DNA of 15,627 nt from Desulfobulbaceae bacterium UBA5173 (GCA_002413355.1 DHWV01000106.1:1-15627), one strand, 5' to 3'. Counted from the first letter of the stretch, positions 2,146 to 14,375 are shown. Notes: generated from the sequence alone by a model not told the origin. Numbers and translations: made by a program.

Positions 2146-2185
2146 GGCCGCAGTCGGAGATTTCCGGCTGCGGCCTTTTTGTTTT
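2146..2185. terminator. Bidirectional rho-independent terminator (ends atpE on +; can also end the mini-CRISPR transcript on -)
   Basis: 13-bp GC-rich stem GGCCGCAGTCGGA / TCCGGCTGCGGCC with one G:T pair (2146-2175). It is followed by TTTTTGTTTT on the + strand. On the - strand the same hairpin is followed by TTTTCT (2145->2140). Confidence 0.85.
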
Positions 2186-2190
2186 GGCGT

Positions 2191-2267
2191 GTACGCTTCT
2201 GCCTGTTCGGCAGTTAACATCTCGGCATTAAATATATTTTTCTAAGCTGACCTGTGCGGCAGTATAA
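2191..2267 (-). CRISPR. Mini-CRISPR (CreA/CreR-like): degenerate I-F repeat psiR1, 20-nt spacer, degenerate I-F repeat psiR2
   Basis: Minus strand reads TTATACTGCCGCACAGGTCAG|CTTAGAAA (2267->2239), then AATATATTTAATGCCGAGAT (2238->2219), then GTTAACTGCCGAACAGGCAG|AAGCGTAC (2218->2191). Compared with the canonical I-F repeat GTTCACTGCCGTATAGGCAG|CTAAGAAA: psiR2 keeps 17/20 of the Cas6f hairpin part but only 2/8 of the handle. psiR1 keeps 7/8 of the 8-nt 5'-handle and has a 5-bp stem with one bulged T. This is the complementary decay expected when only one mature crRNA is needed. Confidence 0.55.
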
Positions 2268-2273
2268 AAACAC

Positions 2274-2302
2274 ACTATAGTTATTTTTTCTTTTTTTTGC
2301 AA
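2274..2302 (-). promoter_or_regulatory. Candidate sigma70 promoter driving the mini-CRISPR
   Basis: Minus strand: TTGCAA (2302->2297), 17-nt A-rich spacer, TATAGT (2279->2274). The predicted start near 2267 coincides with the first base of psiR1. Confidence 0.4.
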
Positions 2303-2320: not shown

Positions 2321-2348
2321 TTGACAGCGAAAAAATGCCGAGTATATT
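2321..2348 (+). promoter_or_regulatory. Candidate sigma70 promoter of the leader/csy operon, back-to-back with the mini-CRISPR promoter
   Basis: Consensus TTGACA (2321-2326), 16-nt spacer, TATATT (2343-2348). Predicted start about 2355. Confidence 0.45.
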
Positions 2349-2369: not shown

Positions 2370-2391
2370 ATTTCTACTTTAAATATATTGG
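2370..2391 (-). promoter_or_regulatory. Predicted Cascade/crRNA binding site (partial protospacer with CC PAM) in the early transcribed region
   Basis: Minus strand 2391->2370 reads CC|AATATATTTAAAGTAGAAAT. The mini-CRISPR spacer is AATATATTTAATGCCGAGAT. Positions 1-11 are identical and 16/20 match overall. Mismatches are at 12, 14, 15 and 18. The 5'-CC PAM is in the position used by type I-F. Confidence 0.5.
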
Positions 2392-2591
2392 ATGGAAACT
2401 ATGAACATCAGCATATCCCTTCATGCGACAACTGCCGAAATTGTGACATTTCTCATCATGTTACCTCTACTTGCAAGGCGGGCTGCTTCGGCACTGATCG
2501 TACTTGGCAGTGAACTTGCGGACACAGGCTATTGGATACGAAGAACCATGACGCAGCAGAACTGTATCTGCTAAGAAGGAGGGGGATTTCT

Positions 2592-3971
2592 ATGGAACAA
2601 GAAAGTCTGTCGGCAAAAATAGCTGGTTATATTTCGGAGCGGGCGAAACCGAAGCTGGAGGAGCTGACGAAAAAGGCGGAGAAGGAGCGCAAAAAGGCTG
2701 CGGACAGCCCGGAAGCCTTAGCCGAGGTAGAAGCGGCATTGGCGGAAGAAGAAATTGCGCTGAAGATCAAATTTGAGCCAGCCGTGTGGCTAACCGACGC
2801 GGCTCGACGGGCTGGGCAGATTCAATTCACAACCCATCCGATCAAATTCACCAATTCGCAGGCGAAGGGCGCAAGTAGCTGCTATGCTGAGTCAGGGCCG
2901 CAGCAGCCAGCGGAGATGCTTGAAGGTTCGCTGATTAGCACGGCTTCGCTGGCAAAACTTGCAATTGATGTGGATGGCAACGCTGCTGCCTTGGATGTGG
3001 CCGCGCTGCTGCAATTGGAGCAGGACGGCAGAATGCTGCTGAAATATATCCAGGCGCAGGATGCGGAACCGCTCCGGCCTTTTGCCAAAAGCGACGAGCA
3101 GCTTGCCGATTGGCTGGAGGGTTTCGGTCAGGCGGTGTCAGTCGCCGCACCGAGTTCTCACAGTCTGGCCAAGCAGCTATATTTTCCGGTCGGCGATGGC
3201 CAGTATCATCTGCTTTCACCGCTTTTTTCCTCGTCCTTGGCGCAGGCAGTGCATGAGCGGATTCATAGCTCCCGCTTTTCCGACAAGGCCAAGGAGGTGC
3301 GCAAAGCCAAGCGGGAGGAGAAATTCCACGAATCGCCGACTGTGGATTACCCCAACACGGCGGTGATGACCTTTGGCGGCACCAAGCCGCAGAATGTCAG
3401 CCAGCTCAACAGCAGGCGCGGCGGCAAGGTCTATCTTCTCTCCTGCGCCCCGCCGGTGTGGGAAAACCGCAATCAGCCGCCACTGGAGGAAACAGTCTTC
3501 AGCCCTCGGCAGTTTAGTTATTATGCCCGCAAAGAGGTCTATGCGCTGCATAGCCATCTAAAAGAGTGCTTGGCTAAATCAAAAAACGTCGCAATCCGAG
3601 ATCGGCGGGCTGAACTGGTTGACAGCATTATAGACAGGTTGACAATGTACGCCGCTGAAATTCAACACAACTTTGAAGCAGGATGGAGCGGCAAGACTGA
3701 ATGCAGACTCATCCACGTTGAACAGCTTTGGCTTGATCCACAGCGAGGCTTAACCGATGCGGAATTCAAGGTGGAGCGGGAGCGAAACGAATGGCAGGAA
3801 GAAATTGCTGCCCGCTTTGCCCGCTGGTTGAACAGGCAGCTGGAGGGAAAGCTGTGGGAGGAAGAAGAGGGAAGAAAGCTGAACGTGGGTGATCCTGGAA
3901 TCAGGGAATGGAAGAGCCTATTGGAAAAGAAGTTGCGGCTGCTTAAAGACGACTTGGAGGCGTTTGCATGA
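2592..3971 (+). CDS. cas8f: Type I-F CRISPR-associated large subunit Cas8f (Csy1)
   Basis: 459 aa. Blocks shared with P. aeruginosa Csy1: WLTDAARRAGQIQF, GNAAALDV, SHSLAKQLYFP, YHLLSPLF, FGGTKPQNVSQLN, VEQLWLDP. Strong SD AAGGAGGGGG (2575-2585) before ATG 2592, so ATG 2592 is preferred over the ORF-track start at 2532. Confidence 0.95.
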   Translation: MEQESLSAKIAGYISERAKPKLEELTKKAEKERKKAADSPEALAEVEAALAEEEIALKIKFEPAVWLTDAARRAGQIQFTTHPIKFTNSQAKGASSCYAESGPQQPAEMLEGSLISTASLAKLAIDVDGNAAALDVAALLQLEQDGRMLLKYIQAQDAEPLRPFAKSDEQLADWLEGFGQAVSVAAPSSHSLAKQLYFPVGDGQYHLLSPLFSSSLAQAVHERIHSSRFSDKAKEVRKAKREEKFHESPTVDYPNTAVMTFGGTKPQNVSQLNSRRGGKVYLLSCAPPVWENRNQPPLEETVFSPRQFSYYARKEVYALHSHLKECLAKSKNVAIRDRRAELVDSIIDRLTMYAAEIQHNFEAGWSGKTECRLIHVEQLWLDPQRGLTDAEFKVERERNEWQEEIAARFARWLNRQLEGKLWEEEEGRKLNVGDPGIREWKSLLEKKLRLLKDDLEAFA

Positions 3972-4921
3972 TTAACGACGAGCAAGGACTGCTGATTCTG
4001 CGGCGCATCAGGGTTGAAAACGCCAATGCCGTGGCTGGGCTGACATGGGGCTTTCCGGCGGTGTCCGCCTTTCTCGGCTTCACTCATGCCCTGTCGCGTA
4101 AACTGCCGCCTGAATTGGGGCTGAAGCTGACCGGTTGTGGCATCGTCTGCCATGAGCATGAGGCGCAGGCGTATCAGCCCAAAAGCTGGAGCGATTATGT
4201 CTTCTCCCTCAGCCGCAACCCGCTGACTAAAACCGGCGAAACCGCTTCCTTCATCGAAGAAGGCCGGATGCGGATGACCGTGTCGCTGCTGATTCCTTTC
4301 ACAGGAAATTTAGACAGTCTGTACGCGGACGAAAAAGAAGCCTTGCCTGAGACCTTCAAGAATCTTGTTCTCAGCCAGCGGCTTGCAGGCGGCACTATAT
4401 TAGACCTCAAAAAACCAGAAAGAAAGATGTTTCCAGAAAACTGGGAGGAACGGCAGAAATTCAATCGCGAACAGCTGCGGCAGCTTCTGCCCGGCTTTGC
4501 CTTAGTGCAGCGGGCTGATCTACTCGCCGAGCATCTCAGCGAATTAAGGAAGGAGACACCGGAGCCCGAGCCGATGGATGCTTGGTTGGATTTTGCCGCC
4601 CTCAAACACAAGGCGGAACAGCCGGAGGAAGGTAAAGAAAAAGCGGAATGGCGATACGTGCCAAAGCCGGGCGGCGGCTGGCTGGTGCCGCTTACGGTGG
4701 GGTATCGGGGCATTTCTGAGCTGCACGAGCCGGGCCGGGTGGCTCGCGTCCGTGATGCGCAAACTCCGTTCCGTTTTGCCGAGGCGGTGTACAGCGTGGG
4801 CGAATGGCTCAGTCCACACCGGGCAGAAAAGCTGGATGATCTGATCTGGCGGTATGAAACTGAGCCGGAAAGCGGCTGGTATCTGTGTCAAAACGGGTAC
4901 AAAGAAGTGTCGAACGATTAA
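3968..4921 (+). CDS. cas5f: Type I-F CRISPR-associated protein Cas5f (Csy2)
   Basis: 317 aa. Csy2-like blocks: ENANAVAGLTWGFP, GCGIVCHEHEAQ, SRNPLTKTGETASFIEEGR, QRLAGGTIL, LLPGFALV, VGEWLSPHR. ATGA overlap with the cas8f stop. Confidence 0.9.
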   Translation: MINDEQGLLILRRIRVENANAVAGLTWGFPAVSAFLGFTHALSRKLPPELGLKLTGCGIVCHEHEAQAYQPKSWSDYVFSLSRNPLTKTGETASFIEEGRMRMTVSLLIPFTGNLDSLYADEKEALPETFKNLVLSQRLAGGTILDLKKPERKMFPENWEERQKFNREQLRQLLPGFALVQRADLLAEHLSELRKETPEPEPMDAWLDFAALKHKAEQPEEGKEKAEWRYVPKPGGGWLVPLTVGYRGISELHEPGRVARVRDAQTPFRFAEAVYSVGEWLSPHRAEKLDDLIWRYETEPESGWYLCQNGYKEVSND

Positions 4922-4957
4922 AGGCAATTCAAAAAACACCTTTTCAGGAGAACAATC

Positions 4958-5983
4958 ATGGCCGTGAAAACAGCATCTGTTTTGGCATTTGAACGCAAGC
5001 TGGCAAATTCTGACGCGCTGCTCCATGCAGGCAAGTGGGAGAATCGGGATAAGAATGAGAGCTGGCAGCCGGTCAGCATTCAGGGAAAATCTGTCCGAGG
5101 CACTATCTCCAACCGGATGAAAATCAAGGTGAAAGAGGGTGAAAAAAAACATGATCCGGCAAAATTGGACGCTGAGATAGATGTTCCCAACCTCCAAACC
5201 GTTGATGTGGCTGCGCTGCCCTTTGACGCAGACACACTGCGGGTCAGCTTCAGCCTGCGGGTGCTGGGCAATCTCTCCCAACCCTCAGCCTGCAACAATC
5301 AGGATTATCAGAATGCCTTGGCCACTGTGATTGACGGCTACGCGCAGGAGCATGGCTTTAGGGAATTGGCTGCCCGTTATGCTGCCAACCTTGCCAATGG
5401 CCGTTTCCTTTGGCGCAACCGGGTTGGGGCTGAAGCAGTGGCAGTGCGGGTGCGGCAGATGCAGGGCGGCAAGGAGACAAGGGTGTGGACATTTGACGGC
5501 CTCGGTTTTGATTTGCGGAATTTTGCCGCGCCGACTGCGGAACTCAAGAGCTTGGCCGAGGTAATCGCCTCTGGATTGTCCGGCAGCACGTTTGTTTTGT
5601 TAGAGGTGGAGGGCTTTGTCCGGCTTGGCGCAGGGCAGGAGGTCTTTCCGTCCCAAGAGCTGATTCTCGACAAAAGTAGTTCCAAGAGCAAAACTCTCTA
5701 CCAAGTAAGCGGCGTGGCGGCCATGCACTCGCAGAAGATCGGCAATGCCCTCCGCACCATTGATACGTGGCATCCTGCTGCGGAGGAAATCGGGCCGATT
5801 GCGGTGGAGCCGTATGGTTCAGTCACCAACCGGGGCAAAGCATACCGTCAACCGGGCGACAAAATGGATTTTTACAGCATCTTTGATGCTTGGATGGTGA
5901 ACAATAAGGTTCCGCCGGTAGAGCAGCAGCATTACGTGATGGCCGTGCTGATCCGGGGCGGCGTGTTTGGAAAAGGGGAATGA
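4958..5983 (+). CDS. cas7f: Type I-F CRISPR-associated backbone protein Cas7f (Csy3)
   Basis: 341 aa, collinear with P. aeruginosa Csy3: [117 protein letters not shown]. Confidence 0.95.
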
Positions 5984-6552
5984 GCATGGATCATTATCTT
6001 GAACTTCGCCTGCGGCAAGACCCGGAGTTTCTCGAAACTGTGCTGATGAACGCTCTCTTTGCCAAACTGCACCGTGCGTTGTGCGAGGCAGGGCAGGGCG
6101 CGATAGGAGTCAGCTTTCCCAATGCGGACAAAAACTTGGGCGATAAACTCCGCCTGCACGGCAGCAAGGAGGCGTTGGAGCGGCTGATGGCCTTGAACTG
6201 GCTGATTGGAATGCGGGATCATCTCAGTATATTCGAGCTGCGTCCCGTGCCTGCGAACTGTCAGCACAGAATAGTGCAGCGGGTGCAGGCCAAAAGCAGC
6301 GCGGAGCGGCTGTATCGGCGTTCCGCGCGCAATGGCCGCTTGAGCGAGAGCGAGGCAGAGAAAAAGACAGCGGCGGCAAAGGAGAAAGAGAAGAAGGCGC
6401 TGCTTAAGCTGCCTTTTGTTCAGCTCAGGAGCGCGTCCACCGGCGAGCAATTCCGGCTCTTCATCAAGCAGGGCGCGCCAATGGACAGGCCGCAGCCGGG
6501 TCGTTTTTCCGATTACGGCCTGAGCAGTACAGCCACGGTGCCGTGGTTCTGA
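5980..6552 (+). CDS. cas6f: Type I-F CRISPR endoribonuclease Cas6f (Csy4)
   Basis: [15 protein letters not shown]..., [33 protein letters not shown] and C-terminal VPWF match P. aeruginosa Csy4 end to end. ATG 5980 overlaps the cas7f stop (ATGA). ATG 5986 (MDHYL) is an equally plausible start. Confidence 0.95.
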
Positions 6553-6565
6553 ATGACGAACGCAG

Positions 6566-9308: not shown

Positions 9309-10205
9309 TCAGTTGTTTTTCTGGATAAGTTTCCAGATATCCGTGAACAAAAAATGATCAAATGTTTTAATGTGCTCTTGTAACATAGCCTCTGAGCACA
9401 TATTTGGCCGAATGTCGCAGTAATATACCCCGTCAAGAGGAGTCAGTTTGATGGTGTAGCCTTTGAAATGTCCGGCAAGAAATGTGGTGTTGATGCCGTA
9501 TTGACCTTCTTTTCCTTTTCGCTGCACATCATTCAGGAACACAGCAAAATGGGGCGTATTTGTGTCAGTCAGTCTACTGTAAAGAAACTTATCGATAAAT
9601 ATTTTGTCTATCCTGTCTTTGCTTGATGTCTTTACAGAACCAATAGCTTTCGTTTCTCCTGCTGATCGAAGAATCAAGTCATGTTGATAATTCATACTGA
9701 AAGCTGTTTTTCCGTCTATGTTGACGGGAACAGAAATCGTGCCTGCTGTGACATCAACACCTGTTTCAGCAATGATCAGCCTGATGAACCGTTCAAACAG
9801 ATCGCCGTTGATCTTTCTCGCCGTATTAGATTCCTTTGCCGGTAAAGCATCAAGAGTCGCGCCGATGCACTGCTGCGCCGTGTAGATCACCCGATTAACA
9901 ACAGCTCGGTTTTCCCTGTTGTCACATCCCCTGATTTCCCTGATGACTTTGAGAAATATGAGACTGGCCTGTTGAAACTCCTCGTAATCATACATGAGGC
10001 TGGCATTGATCGGTCGTGTCACATTATACGTTCCGTCCTGCTTGTACTGAAAGAATTGATAGTTATTTTCGTTTCTTGACACGATTACTGCTTGCAAGTT
10101 TGTCTTGATGAATTCAAGATAATCAAGCGCGAAATGGATGTAATTTCCAGGCGTGCAGAACAACTCTTTGTTACAGGCGGCAACAACAAGGTTTCTGAGA
10201 TTCAT
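9309..10205 (-). CDS. Putative type II restriction endonuclease (PD-(D/E)xK-like), partner of the upstream methyltransferase
   Basis: 298 aa. Its start overlaps the methyltransferase stop (ATGA at 10202-10205). Candidate catalytic signature ...HDLILRS...AIGSVKTSSKDR... Same AT-rich composition as the MTase gene. No family recognised from memory. Confidence 0.55.
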   Translation of the reverse strand: MNLRNLVVAACNKELFCTPGNYIHFALDYLEFIKTNLQAVIVSRNENNYQFFQYKQDGTYNVTRPINASLMYDYEEFQQASLIFLKVIREIRGCDNRENRAVVNRVIYTAQQCIGATLDALPAKESNTARKINGDLFERFIRLIIAETGVDVTAGTISVPVNIDGKTAFSMNYQHDLILRSAGETKAIGSVKTSSKDRIDKIFIDKFLYSRLTDTNTPHFAVFLNDVQRKGKEGQYGINTTFLAGHFKGYTIKLTPLDGVYYCDIRPNMCSEAMLQEHIKTFDHFLFTDIWKLIQKNN

Positions 10206-11125
10206 CTGATAGAATTCCTTCTTTTTTCGTTAGCCCGGTCAAAGGCTATCCATTCTTCTTTGGTCTTTCGCTGCACATGCTCAAGCCGCTCCACAGCCCA
10301 GTCATTGTATTTGGCTTCAACTTCACAGCCAAGCCATCTTCTACCTAATTGCTCGGCTGCAACCAGTGTTGTTCCTGAACCTGAGAACGGATCAAGCACT
10401 CTGTCGCCTTCGTTTGATGAAGCAAGAATAAATTTGCGCACTAGTTCTTCAGGTTTCTGCGCAGGATGCGGTGTTTTCTCCCCCATGCCGTTGCATGTTG
10501 TCGGCACTTCTATCACATCCTTTGGTTTTGCCCCTTTCTCATGAGGCACCCATATATCTTTCCTCTTGCCACTGTTTCCGTACTGGCTTGATTCAGCCTG
10601 CGGATGTGATGGGTATTTCAATGTATGGTTTCCGTAAGAAATACGAACATCATCAATATTGAATGTCTGTTTCTTGCTCTTTCGCAGGTGGAGCAGGCTT
10701 TCGTGGGAGCGTCCCCAGTCGTTGCCAAGATTTGCTTTATTTTTATAATGCCAGACAATCCATCTGCACGACGCGAAATACTGCATCGAAGGATGCTTCA
10801 GATCAGCAAGAATTTCCGAAAAACCGCAAACGTATAACGTCCCGACTGGTTTCAAAATTCTTGCCGCCTCTTTGATCCACTGCATGGACCATTCAATATA
10901 CTGCTCCTGACTCTCGAACTTGTCCCATTCCGCTTTGTTAATGTTGTACGGCGGATCAGCAAAAATCAAGTCAATGCTCTCTGCGGCTAACGACCTCAGC
11001 CAGCTCATGCTGTCTCCTTGATACAGTGATCCGTTCTGCTGTTTATACAGCAAGCTGAACGGCATCTCCTTGACGACGCTGTGCCTTTTGCCCCGTTCCT
11101 GTCGTTCAAACAGCAGTTGCCGCAT
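10202..11125 (-). CDS. Beta-class DNA methyltransferase, probably N6-adenine specific
   Basis: Motif IV IFADPPYNI lies N-terminal to motif I VLDPFSGSGTT. This circular permutation is typical of beta-class N6A/N4C enzymes, and DPPY favours N6-adenine. An alternative start at 11065 (MPFSLLY) is possible. Confidence 0.9.
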   Translation of the reverse strand: MRQLLFERQERGKRHSVVKEMPFSLLYKQQNGSLYQGDSMSWLRSLAAESIDLIFADPPYNINKAEWDKFESQEQYIEWSMQWIKEAARILKPVGTLYVCGFSEILADLKHPSMQYFASCRWIVWHYKNKANLGNDWGRSHESLLHLRKSKKQTFNIDDVRISYGNHTLKYPSHPQAESSQYGNSGKRKDIWVPHEKGAKPKDVIEVPTTCNGMGEKTPHPAQKPEELVRKFILASSNEGDRVLDPFSGSGTTLVAAEQLGRRWLGCEVEAKYNDWAVERLEHVQRKTKEEWIAFDRANEKRRNSIR

Positions 11126-13061: not shown

Positions 13062-14375
13062 ATGAAGAAGAAAATCGTGCTGTCAGCCGCTGTCTTAGCC
13101 GCGCTGACCGTCACAGCTCCAGCAGGCTCGGTCAACGCCGCAAGCATCCTCAGAACAGTGGGGACTCATCCGGTTTCACGCCCGCTGGCAACGGTGAATG
13201 ATTTGCAGGCCATGATGCAAAACATGGGCAGGGACATTCAGGCTGGCATGGCGGCGGCGGGCAATGCCGGACTGTTTCCGCTGGTGCAGGCGCAGATCAT
13301 TCAGCAGCCTGCGCGGATCGCCATTGTTGACTACCTGCCAGGCCAGCACATGGACTGGATGCTGTTCCGGCACAACGGCAGAGGCCGGGTCAAGGTGGCG
13401 CGGGATGTGACGTGGAGTGGCAATGCTCCGCTCCAAGTTTTCGAGTTTGCAGTGGACAAAGACGGGCAGCGTTACACGTTCGCCGTGCCGCTCCAATGCG
13501 GCAATCTGGCCCTGAAAGAATTTGGCCCGGCACCTATGCCGGTGCAGGTGGCTCCTGTCATTCAGCAGGTGCAAGTTCCTGTTCCCGGCCCGACGGTCTA
13601 TGTCCCTAAAGAAGTGATCAAATACGTGGACAGACCGGTTGAAGTGGTGCGGCAGATTCAAGTCCCAGTGCCGGGTCCGACCGTTTATGTTGACCGGCCG
13701 GTAGTGAAAGAAGTGGTGCGGCAGGTGCAGGTTCCTGTTCCCGGCCCGACGGTCTATGTCCCTAAAGAAGTGATCAAATATGTGGACAAAGAGGTGGTGA
13801 AGGAAGTGCAGGTTCCTGGCCCGACCAGGACGGTGGTCAAACGAGTCACTGTGCAGGGGCCAGCACGAACGGTCTATGTTGACCGGCCGGTGGTGAAAGA
13901 GGCAAAATGCTGCGAATCACCCTTCCATTTTATCGCTGACGGCGGCTACCTGCATCAGCAGGAGGAGGCGGACTACGGCCTTGGCAGGTTGGGCGTGGAG
14001 TATGTTTTCAATCCGCAGTTTTCTTTCTTGGCTCTGGCAGGCGGTGCAGCCAAGGCAGGCGGCGATGCCGGAGCAGATGCCTTTGTGCTTGATTTTCTCG
14101 TCCAGTACAACCTGTTTCAATGTTCCCTCAACGGCTCAACGTGGTCGCCTTTCTTTATTGGTGTCGGTGTCGGGGCATGGATGACCAACGGCGATGACAA
14201 CGTGAAGAGCGAGGACAGCGGTGCGGATTTGATCGCCGAGGTTGGCCTCCGGCTCTTCGGCAATCCGTTCACCACCAGCGCGTCCATTTTTGTTGAAGGT
14301 CGGGCGGCGACTGACGAGCTGGATGAGCTGAATGAATACGGCCGCATCGGAGGCGGCTTGCGCTTCAGGTTCTAA
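13062..14375 (+). CDS. Secreted outer-membrane protein: signal peptide, VPVPGPTVYV-type tandem repeats, C-terminal beta-barrel-like domain ending in Phe
   Basis: MKKKIVLSAAVLAALTVTAPAGSVNA|AS signal peptide. Central repeats (QVPVPGPTVYV-P/D-KEV/RPV...). C-terminus ...GRIGGGLRFRF has the aromatic terminal residue typical of OMP barrels. AAGGAG at 13046-13051. Confidence 0.8.
   Translation: MKKKIVLSAAVLAALTVTAPAGSVNAASILRTVGTHPVSRPLATVNDLQAMMQNMGRDIQAGMAAAGNAGLFPLVQAQIIQQPARIAIVDYLPGQHMDWMLFRHNGRGRVKVARDVTWSGNAPLQVFEFAVDKDGQRYTFAVPLQCGNLALKEFGPAPMPVQVAPVIQQVQVPVPGPTVYVPKEVIKYVDRPVEVVRQIQVPVPGPTVYVDRPVVKEVVRQVQVPVPGPTVYVPKEVIKYVDKEVVKEVQVPGPTRTVVKRVTVQGPARTVYVDRPVVKEAKCCESPFHFIADGGYLHQQEEADYGLGRLGVEYVFNPQFSFLALAGGAAKAGGDAGADAFVLDFLVQYNLFQCSLNGSTWSPFFIGVGVGAWMTNGDDNVKSEDSGADLIAEVGLRLFGNPFTTSASIFVEGRAATDELDELNEYGRIGGGLRFRF
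13566..13632 (+). repeat. Intragenic direct repeat, copy 1 (67 nt)
   Basis: CAGGTGCAAGTTCCTGTTCCCGGCCCGACGGTCTATGTCCCTAAAGAAGTGATCAAATACGTGGACA. Matches copy 2 at 65/67 positions, 156 nt (52 codons) downstream. Confidence 0.9.
13722..13788 (+). repeat. Intragenic direct repeat, copy 2 (67 nt)
   Basis: Differs from copy 1 only at 13730 (A->G) and 13781 (C->T), both synonymous third positions. Confidence 0.9.

Follow-up and report, generated by a model that had tools for sequence, protein, structure and literature searches.

A type I-F1 Cascade operon without nearby cas3 in a Desulfobulbaceae bacterium, with a mini-array guide matching its own promoter region

Introduction

In type I-F1 CRISPR-Cas loci, autoregulatory mini-arrays lie 5′ of cas8f and are transcribed in the opposite direction; their short guides match targets with a CC protospacer-adjacent motif (PAM) and mismatches at every sixth position, repression through them requires Cascade but neither Cas3 nor Cas1, and they are an ordinary component of many complete I-F loci (10.1101/2023.03.03.530964). 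In the I-F CreTA module of Acinetobacter, a creA with two psi-repeats lies 5′ of csy1, divergent from a small open reading frame (ORF) that bears a Shine–Dalgarno (SD) sequence; its guide pairs partly with a CC-flanked site 3′ of the toxin promoter, and repression depends on the Csy complex, with Cas3 and Cas1 dispensable (Wang et al., Nat Commun 2023, PMC10097628). One CreTA of Pseudomonas aeruginosa shares its promoter with the csy genes (10.1101/2024.10.29.618823). CrePA of Acinetobacter baylyi ADP1 has, between the creA mini-array and csy1, the gene for a protein toxin under CRISPR repression (Shu et al., bioRxiv 10.1101/2024.01.05.574328); this toxin, CreP, is a 103-amino acid (aa) KilAC-domain protein of phage origin that blocks cell division (10.1101/2024.01.05.574328). 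Here we analyze a csy1–csy4 operon, encoding an I-F1 Cascade, in a stretch of 15,627 nucleotides (nt) from Desulfobulbaceae bacterium UBA5173 (GCA_002413355.1 DHWV01000106.1:1-15627), which we refer to as the window.

We found that this operon is preceded by a minus-strand mini-array whose guide matches a CC-flanked site in the operon’s own promoter region and by a small ORF between that site and csy1. In our preferred interpretation, for which confidence and doubt are evenly balanced, the locus is an old self-repressing I-F1 Cascade module that has lost cas3 and its array at least locally and may be linked to a toxin. For the feedback part, autorepression by the mini-array guide, the anatomy and the co-variation among relatives make a strong case. 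What is already known here is the self-targeting I-F module of the CreR/CreTA type; what is new is that it stands without nuclease, adaptation genes, or array and together with an undescribed small protein as candidate toxin.

Mini-Array and Its Target

Between atpE and csy1, the minus strand carries two degenerate I-F repeats, psiR1 and psiR2, around a psi-spacer (Table 1). The mini-array repeat is identical at 25/28 positions to the 28-nt repeat of true arrays in relatives, and psiR1 matches the Rfam model CRISPR-DR4 on the minus strand over the full model span, at a subthreshold 23.6 bits (gathering score 35 bits, E = 0.3). The first 20 nt of psiR2, which include the Cas6f hairpin, are identical at 18/20 positions to the repeat of the clade’s arrays (GTTCACTGCCGCACAGGCAGCTTAGAAA), its last 8 nt are degenerate, and the pattern CTGCCGAACAGGCAG was found at 2213..2199 with 0 mismatches. 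The predicted transcription start, set by a minus-strand promoter-like site, is the first base of psiR1. When the minus-strand RNA was folded, both repeat hairpins formed, and the atpE terminator hairpin appeared as a stem of 12 bp with UUUUCU after it (the 133-nt transcript as a whole has z = -5.8); the atpE hairpin probably terminates the mini-array transcript as well. As in CreR, the mini-array combines hairpins that Cas6 could recognize, an intact handle (CUUAGAAA), and a promoter of its own. We rejected a plus-strand mini-array because the handle, promoter, Rfam match, and PAM/seed logic fit the minus strand only. As a side observation, the minus-strand sequence GTTCACTGCC (2494-2518), within the small ORF and ∼250 nt from the mini-array, reproduces the first 10 nt of the I-F repeat exactly, which may be fortuitous or what is left of a third repeat.

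Again as in CreR, the guide is complementary in part to a site that has a PAM beside it and lies in the effector operon’s promoter region. Pairing is perfect at positions 1–11, with mismatches at 12, 14, 15, and 18, two of which (12 and 18) are flipped-out positions in I-F complexes. This is the only CC-plus-seed site for the guide in the whole window, and just 12 of 200,000 shuffled guides reached such a site in the 482-bp region. The guide’s own copy, being AA flanked, is not self-targeted. The target begins 22 bp downstream of the −10 box of the operon promoter, which is the sole plus-strand promoter-like site between atpE and csy1, and its PAM overlaps the GGA(T)GGA ribosome-binding site of the small ORF.

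For comparison, we placed the closest Cas8f relatives (58–95% identity) in their contigs. Four of them share the arrangement of minus-strand mini-array, CC-flanked target, small ORF, and csy1: Candidatus Electronema halotolerans (L012), the short close relatives L165 and L171, which came from a metagenome scan that otherwise returned mostly distant canonical loci, and L005. The operon promoter is conserved in L012 (12/12 consensus positions), L165 (11/12), and L005 (10/12); minus-strand promoters also precede the mini-arrays of L012 and L005, and the divergent promoter pair is kept in L012, L165, and L005. The guides of the four loci differ from that of the window and from one another, and their lengths range from ∼14 to 32 nt. 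Each nevertheless matches its own CC-flanked target through seed positions 1–5 and 7–11, with mismatches mostly at 6, 12, and 18; the chance of such a match is at most 3e-4 per locus. This co-variation of guide and target across four relatives is the strongest evidence for a functional circuit.

The canonical cas1-cas2/3-csy locus L013 also has a minus-strand mini-array 5′ of csy1 (L013:5363-5578). Its layout resembles that of CreTA: a CC-flanked partial target comes first, then an SD sequence and a mini-ORF of 12 codons (MCSYLFLSSVQA). The guide of L013 has a mismatch at position 9 and does not pass the strict seed test, and we did not count this locus as support. Two further observations concern the close relatives. 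Identity between the window and L008/L171 falls along the operon from Csy3 (97%) through Csy2 (91%) and Csy1 (80%) to the small ORF (∼40%), and guide and target are entirely different, a gradient that points to recombination in the regulatory module or to its very rapid turnover. Long perfect inverted repeats are inserted near the mini-array and promoter region at L171:296-355 (AGACCTCTTGCATAAGTCGTA...TACGACTTATGCAAGAGGTCT) and L165:1095-1150 and may represent a small mobile or structured element.

Small ORF Preceding csy1

The first gene of the operon is the small ORF, which lies directly 3′ of the guide target and divergent from the mini-array, the position of the toxin in CreTA and CrePA, and is conserved. 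It encodes a hydrophobic helix, a basic patch, and a GYWIRR motif, and its stop codon runs into the csy1 ribosome-binding site. Homologues stand directly 5′ of csy1 in seven relatives (L008, L171, L165, L012, L005, L172, and L173), with the shared traits ALQAAANE, hydrophobic helix, KK/RR patch, V-V/I-G-G, and G-W-W-R/M-R. The ratio of nonsynonymous to synonymous divergence (dN/dS) is 0.14 for L012 vs. L165 and 0.23 for L008 vs. L171. An exhaustive profile search of 1.84 billion representatives recovered a family of 8 clusters, and every member with readable context immediately precedes csy1. By these comparisons, the small ORF belongs to a true protein family that is conserved in its amino acid sequence and under purifying selection in relatives.

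The small ORF also keeps company with the mini-array. L003 and L007 have neither, and in L006, where 243 bp are available and hold no mini-array, the small ORF is reduced to a 3′ remnant. From its position, this co-presence in the examined loci, its hydrophobic and basic character, and the analogy with CreTA and CrePA, we tentatively nominate it as a CRISPR-repressed toxin, a candidacy that we rate at somewhat below an even chance. Separately, rare codons ATA-CGA-AGA (2536-2544), each used ∼4 times per 1,000 in the window’s genes, fall at the conserved W-x-R-R motif, for which L012 uses CGA-AGA and L005 CGG-AGG. Such tandem rare codons are reminiscent of tRNA-sequestering CreT RNAs, an analogy that proves nothing.

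Effector Genes and the Absence of cas3 and Array

We next describe the effector itself. In profile searches, Csy1–Csy4 cover the Pfam and NCBIfam I-F equivalog models from end to end (E values of 1e-52 to 1e-149), PADLOC also recovers separate full-length Cas8f, Cas5f, Cas7f, and Cas6f, and structures of the P. aeruginosa Csy subunits (e.g., 5uz9 and 6b44) align to all four proteins over nearly their whole length. An earlier note on this DNA had described four full-length Csy proteins collinear with those of P. aeruginosa I-F1; the profile and Protein Data Bank (PDB) alignments and the gene coordinates agree with that description. Cas8f and Cas5f are two distinct proteins with no fusion, and Cas6f retains both its catalytic His (in FAKLHRAL) and its Ser motif (in LRSASTG).

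A relative-rate check placed the window’s four Csy proteins as near to canonical outgroups as those of cas3-bearing relatives, indicating no acceleration. The C-terminal part of Cas8f recruits Cas2/3 in published I-F structures, and the window’s Cas8f retains every clade-invariant alignment column, those of the C terminus included. In a scan of genome collections, the nearest Cas8f was that of Ca. Electronema halotolerans (66% identity); the scan found no genome of the window’s species, and pieces of the window’s DNA occur at 100% identity in two other assemblies. This nearest genome, together with homologues of the membrane protein that flanks csy4, assigns the organism to the Desulfobulbaceae, near the cable bacteria. 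The plasmid and phage collections contained no close relative of Cas8f (best match 43% identical), and we therefore did not favor an origin in a mobile element.

Profile searches, together with tblastn for Cas3-like sequences, found no cas1, cas3, tnsABC, or tniQ among the ORFs of the window. Nor did the window contain a tandem CRISPR array: nothing in it has the 28-nt repeats and 32-nt spacers of a canonical array, and its sole repeats are the two degenerate ones around the 20-nt spacer. The gene list of the source, a 31,986-bp JGI metagenome contig, has nothing but housekeeping genes over ∼10 kb outside the window and no cas gene in ∼25 kb. The earlier note was thus right that the mini-array is the only guide source in the window, that the 13-nt gap between csy4 and the convergent gene leaves no array there, and that the Cas8/5 fusion and tnsABC/tniQ of CRISPR-associated transposons (CASTs) are absent.

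The same note had sought the missing genes upstream, where cas1-cas2/3 sit in canonical I-F1 loci. They are indeed absent from that side, but the comparison with relatives does not support an upstream pair as the missing part. In 6/6 clade members with a known downstream region (L003, L005, L006, L007, L012, and L173), csy4 is followed by a Cas3 of 975–1,007 aa, which aligns with canonical Cas2-3 from about residue 100 on and has no Pfam Cas2 domain. An array with the repeat GTTCACTGCCGCACAGGCAGCTTAGAAA follows cas3 in L003, L005, L006, and L012, while the contigs of L007 and L173 end before that point; the clade’s arrays reach 16 repeats. The fetched flanks of these six loci (up to 10 kb) contain no cas1. 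Judged by gene order in the clade, what the window lacks is a downstream cas3 and array, not an upstream cas1-cas2/3 pair.

This architecture of csy1–4 and a stand-alone ∼1,000-aa Cas3 (e.g., L012:10001-17643) is specific to cable bacteria and accounts for 6 of the ∼140 I-F loci that we surveyed. A further 110 were canonical, and three (L132, L169, and L086) had neither cas1 nor cas3 in their flanks. L132 and L169 have very long arrays and L086 a decaying one, so that none matches the array-free state of the window. Among these, L132 and L169, like L168, combine csy1–4 and an upstream minus-strand mini-array with downstream arrays of >80 repeats and no cas1 or cas3 within the fetched flanks. 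L086:9875-14303 (Marinobacterium jannaschii DSM 6295) has csy1–4, but the 10 kb upstream and 7 kb downstream contain neither cas1 nor cas3; the operon is followed only by six decayed repeats and has chemotaxis and Mrp antiporter genes as neighbors. It looks like a decaying orphan I-F locus of an unrelated lineage. In L003 (9707-10376 and 14391-14999), a PIN-like 154-aa ORF and a 70-aa ORF lie between csy4 and cas3, and a HigB/HigA pair lies between two parts of the array.

A diverged relative, L009, has the same convergent junction of csy4 and the membrane-protein gene, with 18 nt between the stops and flanking proteins 78–81% identical to those of the window. Synonymous divergence (dS) between the two is 1.48 for csy3, 1.57 for csy4, 1.36 for the membrane-protein gene, and 1.66 for the CxxCxxCC gene, and dN/dS is 0.07–0.11 for csy3, csy4, and both flanking genes. 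On the simplest reading of these values, the cas3-less junction predates the split of the window and L009, and the csy genes have been under purifying selection since. We did not treat L008 and L009 as one lineage because blastn between them gave no match.

Feature Coordinates and Neighboring Genes

Table 1. Features of the csy locus and its upstream region (positions in the window)
Feature	Position	Strand	Remarks
Hairpin 3′ of atpE	2146..2180	.	G+C rich, T-runs on both sides; atpE terminator
Mini-array	2267-2191	-	Two degenerate repeats and 20-nt guide; own promoter
psiR2, second repeat	2218..2191	-	GTTAACTGCCGAACAGGCAG plus AAGCGTAC; degenerate; hairpin seen in RNA fold
psi-spacer	2238..2219	-	20-nt guide AATATATTTAATGCCGAGAT; own copy flanked by AA, not CC
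psiR1, first repeat	2267..2239	-	TTATACTGCCGCACAGGTCAGCTTAGAAA; hairpin with 1-nt bulge; 8-nt 5′-handle CTTAGAAA intact
Mini-array promoter-like site	2302..2274	-	TTGCAA-17-TATAGT; ends six bases before psiR1
Operon promoter	2321-2348	+	TTGACA-16-TATATT; 11/12 consensus; back to back with mini-array promoter
Guide target	2370..2391	-	CC PAM (2391-2390) and protospacer AATATATTTAAAGTAGAAAT (2389-2370); found as repeat family
Small ORF	2401-2574	+	MNISISLHATTAEIVTFLIMLPLLARRAASALIVLGSELADTGYWIRRTMTQQNCIC; 57 aa (60 aa if start is ATG 2392); first gene of csy operon
csy1/cas8f	2592-3971	+	459 aa; ATG preceded by AAGGAGG; Pfam/NCBIfam/PDB matches
csy2/cas5f	3968-4921	+	317 aa; Pfam/NCBIfam/PDB matches
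csy3/cas7f	4958-5983	+	341 aa; Pfam/NCBIfam/PDB matches
csy4/cas6f	5980-6552	+	190 aa; catalytic His and Ser motifs present; Pfam/NCBIfam/PDB matches
Junction	6553..6565	.	13 nt between csy4 stop (6552) and convergent membrane-protein stop (6566)

On the 5′ side, the locus is bordered by atpI-like, atpB, and atpE genes and the hairpin terminator, as the earlier note had reported in part (an ATP synthase gene and its terminator). On the 3′ side, the convergent gene encodes a membrane protein of 559/569 aa. We considered this protein as a substitute effector and dismissed it: it is a multipass membrane protein found Desulfobulbaceae-wide and has no defence-family match. P0125 was likewise set aside as a csy-less comparison for the interval between atpE and the membrane-protein gene, as it lies in an unrelated polysaccharide cluster and is probably a paralogue. 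The other ORFs of the window encode a CxxCxxCC protein, a type II restriction-modification pair, a hydantoinase-like protein, a repeat protein, a CZB-domain protein, and the end of a DAHP synthase. The restriction-modification pair (9309-11125, minus strand; a type II restriction endonuclease and an N6/N4 DNA methyltransferase) has a G+C content of 44–46% against 52–60% around it and L009 lacks it at the equivalent position; it was probably inserted recently beside the csy block. Direct repeats of 102 nt (82% identical) and 32 nt (91%) at 13565-13900, within the ORF of 437/451 aa, point to an internally repeated protein.

Discussion

We propose the following circuit. Two back-to-back promoters would drive the mini-array leftward and the 57-codon ORF followed by csy1–csy4 rightward. 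Cas6f would cut the mini-array RNA into a CRISPR RNA (crRNA)-like RNA of ∼48 nt (2246-2199, minus strand), consisting of the 8-nt handle CUUAGAAA, the 20-nt guide AAUAUAUUUAAUGCCGAGAU, and the 20-nt repeat hairpin GUUAACUGCCGAACAGGCAG. A shortened Csy complex carrying this guide would then bind the CC-flanked site at 2370-2391 and stop transcription of the small ORF and csy1–4, which would amount to CreR-type negative feedback. Should the small ORF be toxic, the loop would become an addiction module of the CreTA/CrePA type, in which loss or inhibition of any Csy subunit releases the toxin. Under this proposal, cas3 and the array would have been lost long ago in the lineage of the window, and the purifying selection on csy could be put down to the addiction or regulatory circuit; an addiction circuit would explain why a nuclease-less Cascade has been under such selection for so long.

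The earlier note had offered two readings, a Cascade kept as a regulator or by an addiction module and one half of a split locus. Our analysis favors the first, given the promoter-targeting guide, the conserved small ORF, the old cas3-less junction, and the purifying selection. The claim that the mini-array marks a Cascade kept purely as a regulator did not survive: since mini-arrays are common in complete I-F loci and occur in the cas3-bearing relatives too, the mini-array alone is no proof of such a role. A bolder version of our proposal is doubtful, namely that the whole genome lacks a nuclease, adaptation genes, and immune spacers, that the I-F1 Cascade has persisted in this state for long (dS ∼1.5), and that it has been kept only because its one crRNA-like guide silences a new small membrane-active toxin, the product of the operon’s first gene. 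Such a natural addiction relic may also sense phage anti-CRISPRs and abort the infection once these inactivate the complex.

Several observations weigh against the interpretation of the locus as an old, possibly toxin-linked relic. Because the sequence comes from a metagenome contig of 32 kb, the genome may carry cas3, cas1, and arrays at other places. The unrelaxed Csy proteins and the conserved columns of Cas8f would also be expected if a Cas3 worked in trans, and the support from L009 covers only csy3, csy4, and the downstream side. The small ORF has no Pfam match and only marginal PHROG matches (E = 0.015–0.02), and its AlphaFold model is one low-confidence helix with a predicted local distance difference test score (pLDDT) of 65. 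The copy in the window departs from the family motifs (GG to GS and WW to YW) and is only ∼40% identical to those of its closest relatives despite a Csy3 identity of 97%; it may be attenuated or decaying.

The first of these points leads to the alternative that fares best, a split but functional immune system in which Cas3, perhaps Cas1, and one or more I-F arrays lie elsewhere and act in trans. In that case, the mini-array would do no more than autoregulate in the manner usual for CreR, and a working system would have the small ORF as its accessory or anti-anti-CRISPR toxin. We consider this possible, although appreciably less probable than not. Besides the metagenomic source, of which ∼25 kb was inspected, it is favored by the four Csy proteins, conserved like those of cas3-bearing relatives and with the invariant columns of Cas8f kept. 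The clade is also loosely built, with Cas3 lacking Cas2, no cas1 within 10 kb, and arrays of up to 16 repeats, which makes parts acting in trans plausible, and L132 and L169 offer examples of csy1–4 with long arrays and no cas1 or cas3 within 10 kb. However, cas3 directly follows csy4 in all six of the clade relatives whose downstream region is known, whereas in the window and in the diverged L009 a conserved chromosomal gene occupies that place, with 13–18 nt between the stops. The mini-array is, moreover, the only array or repeat in the window.

An improbable alternative is a regulatory relic free of any toxin, in which the CreR loop was inherited from a complete ancestor, the small ORF encodes a leader or accessory peptide that does no harm, and csy is kept for unrecognized host targets or for competition with phage-borne mini-arrays, or simply decays slowly. 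The promoter targeted by the guide also drives csy1–4, and no second promoter was found, which would be enough for CreR-type feedback; the window’s small ORF, besides straying from its family motifs, is unlike any known toxin (searches with Pfam, PHROG, and profiles gave no resemblance to known toxins, CreT, or CreP). However, pure self-repression offers no selective reason for dN/dS values of 0.07–0.11 in csy3 and csy4 over a dS of ∼1.5, and the window contains no other CC-plus-seed target for the guide. The small ORF, furthermore, is under purifying selection in relatives and, among the examined loci, accompanies the mini-array, being lost or truncated where the latter is absent.

Finally, the AT-rich setting and the Rfam score below gathering (23.6 vs. 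35 bits, E = 0.3) might suggest chance similarity in intergenic DNA, an explanation effectively refuted by two I-F-type hairpins at crRNA spacing with an exact 8-nt handle, by the rarity of a CC PAM with perfect seed among shuffles (12/200,000), and by the same architecture, with co-varying guide and target, in four other loci.

What the locus means hinges on whether cas3 is absent elsewhere in the genome and whether the small ORF is toxic. CreTA modules have been proposed to make Cascade genes “addictive,” which predicts that Cascade outlives the rest of CRISPR-Cas. If our interpretation is correct, an I-F1 Cascade that lacks cas3 and array, remains under purifying selection, and carries a self-targeting guide would be direct evolutionary evidence for this idea. 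It would also add a new small-protein family to the CRISPR-repressed toxins and show that such circuits, known from Acinetobacter, Pseudomonas, and haloarchaea, reach into the Desulfobulbaceae (cable bacteria). The compact csy1–4 with a 20-nt guide, binding DNA without cutting it, would amount to a ready-made natural CRISPR interference (CRISPRi) module. If cas3 lies elsewhere in the genome, the locus would instead be an ordinary rearranged I-F system with a CreR/CreTA module.

Comparison with Known Systems

The effector was compared with types I-F1, I-F2, and I-F3. It is not type I-F2, which has Cas5f2, Cas7f2, and Cas6f only and no cas8f, since a full-length Cas8f is present. With the I-F3 Tn7-like CASTs it shares a nuclease-less, DNA-binding I-F effector; those systems, however, have a Cas8/Cas5 fusion and tniQ/tnsABC, whereas the window has separate Cas8f and Cas5f and no Tn7 genes, which excludes this type. 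Its Cas7f is also distant from CAST Cas7 (1e-20 to 1e-26, against 1e-132 for I-F1). The same four separate subunits, collinear over their full length, make up the canonical I-F1 complex (P. aeruginosa PA14 Csy; PDB 5UZ9 and 6B44), but the window lacks the cas1, cas2-3, and array of canonical loci, and its sole guide is a 20-nt self-targeting one.

The regulatory region resembles CreR (Shmakov et al. 2023, 10.1101/2023.03.03.530964; Liu et al. 2023, 10.1101/2023.03.10.532045) in the position and orientation of the mini-array, the short guide, the CC PAM, the mismatches at every sixth position, and a target in the operon promoter region. CreR mini-arrays, however, sit within complete cas1-cas2/3-csy loci and have no ORF between target and cas8f, and the window differs in both respects. 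CrePA has its protein toxin gene where the window has the small ORF, and its target, too, leaves position 12 unpaired and has its CC PAM in or beside the promoter; unlike CreP, the candidate here is an unrelated 57-aa hydrophobic peptide from an 8-cluster family. Acinetobacter CreTA (PMC10097628) lies between cas3 and csy1 of a complete locus, whereas the window has no cas3, cas1, or array nearby, and its toxin is an RNA with an 11-codon mini-ORF, whereas the ORF here has 57 codons and is conserved as a protein. In the window, unlike in Acinetobacter CreTA, the ORF and csy1–4 also appear to share one promoter. Nevertheless, the layout of mini-array, target, and small ORF is the same in both.

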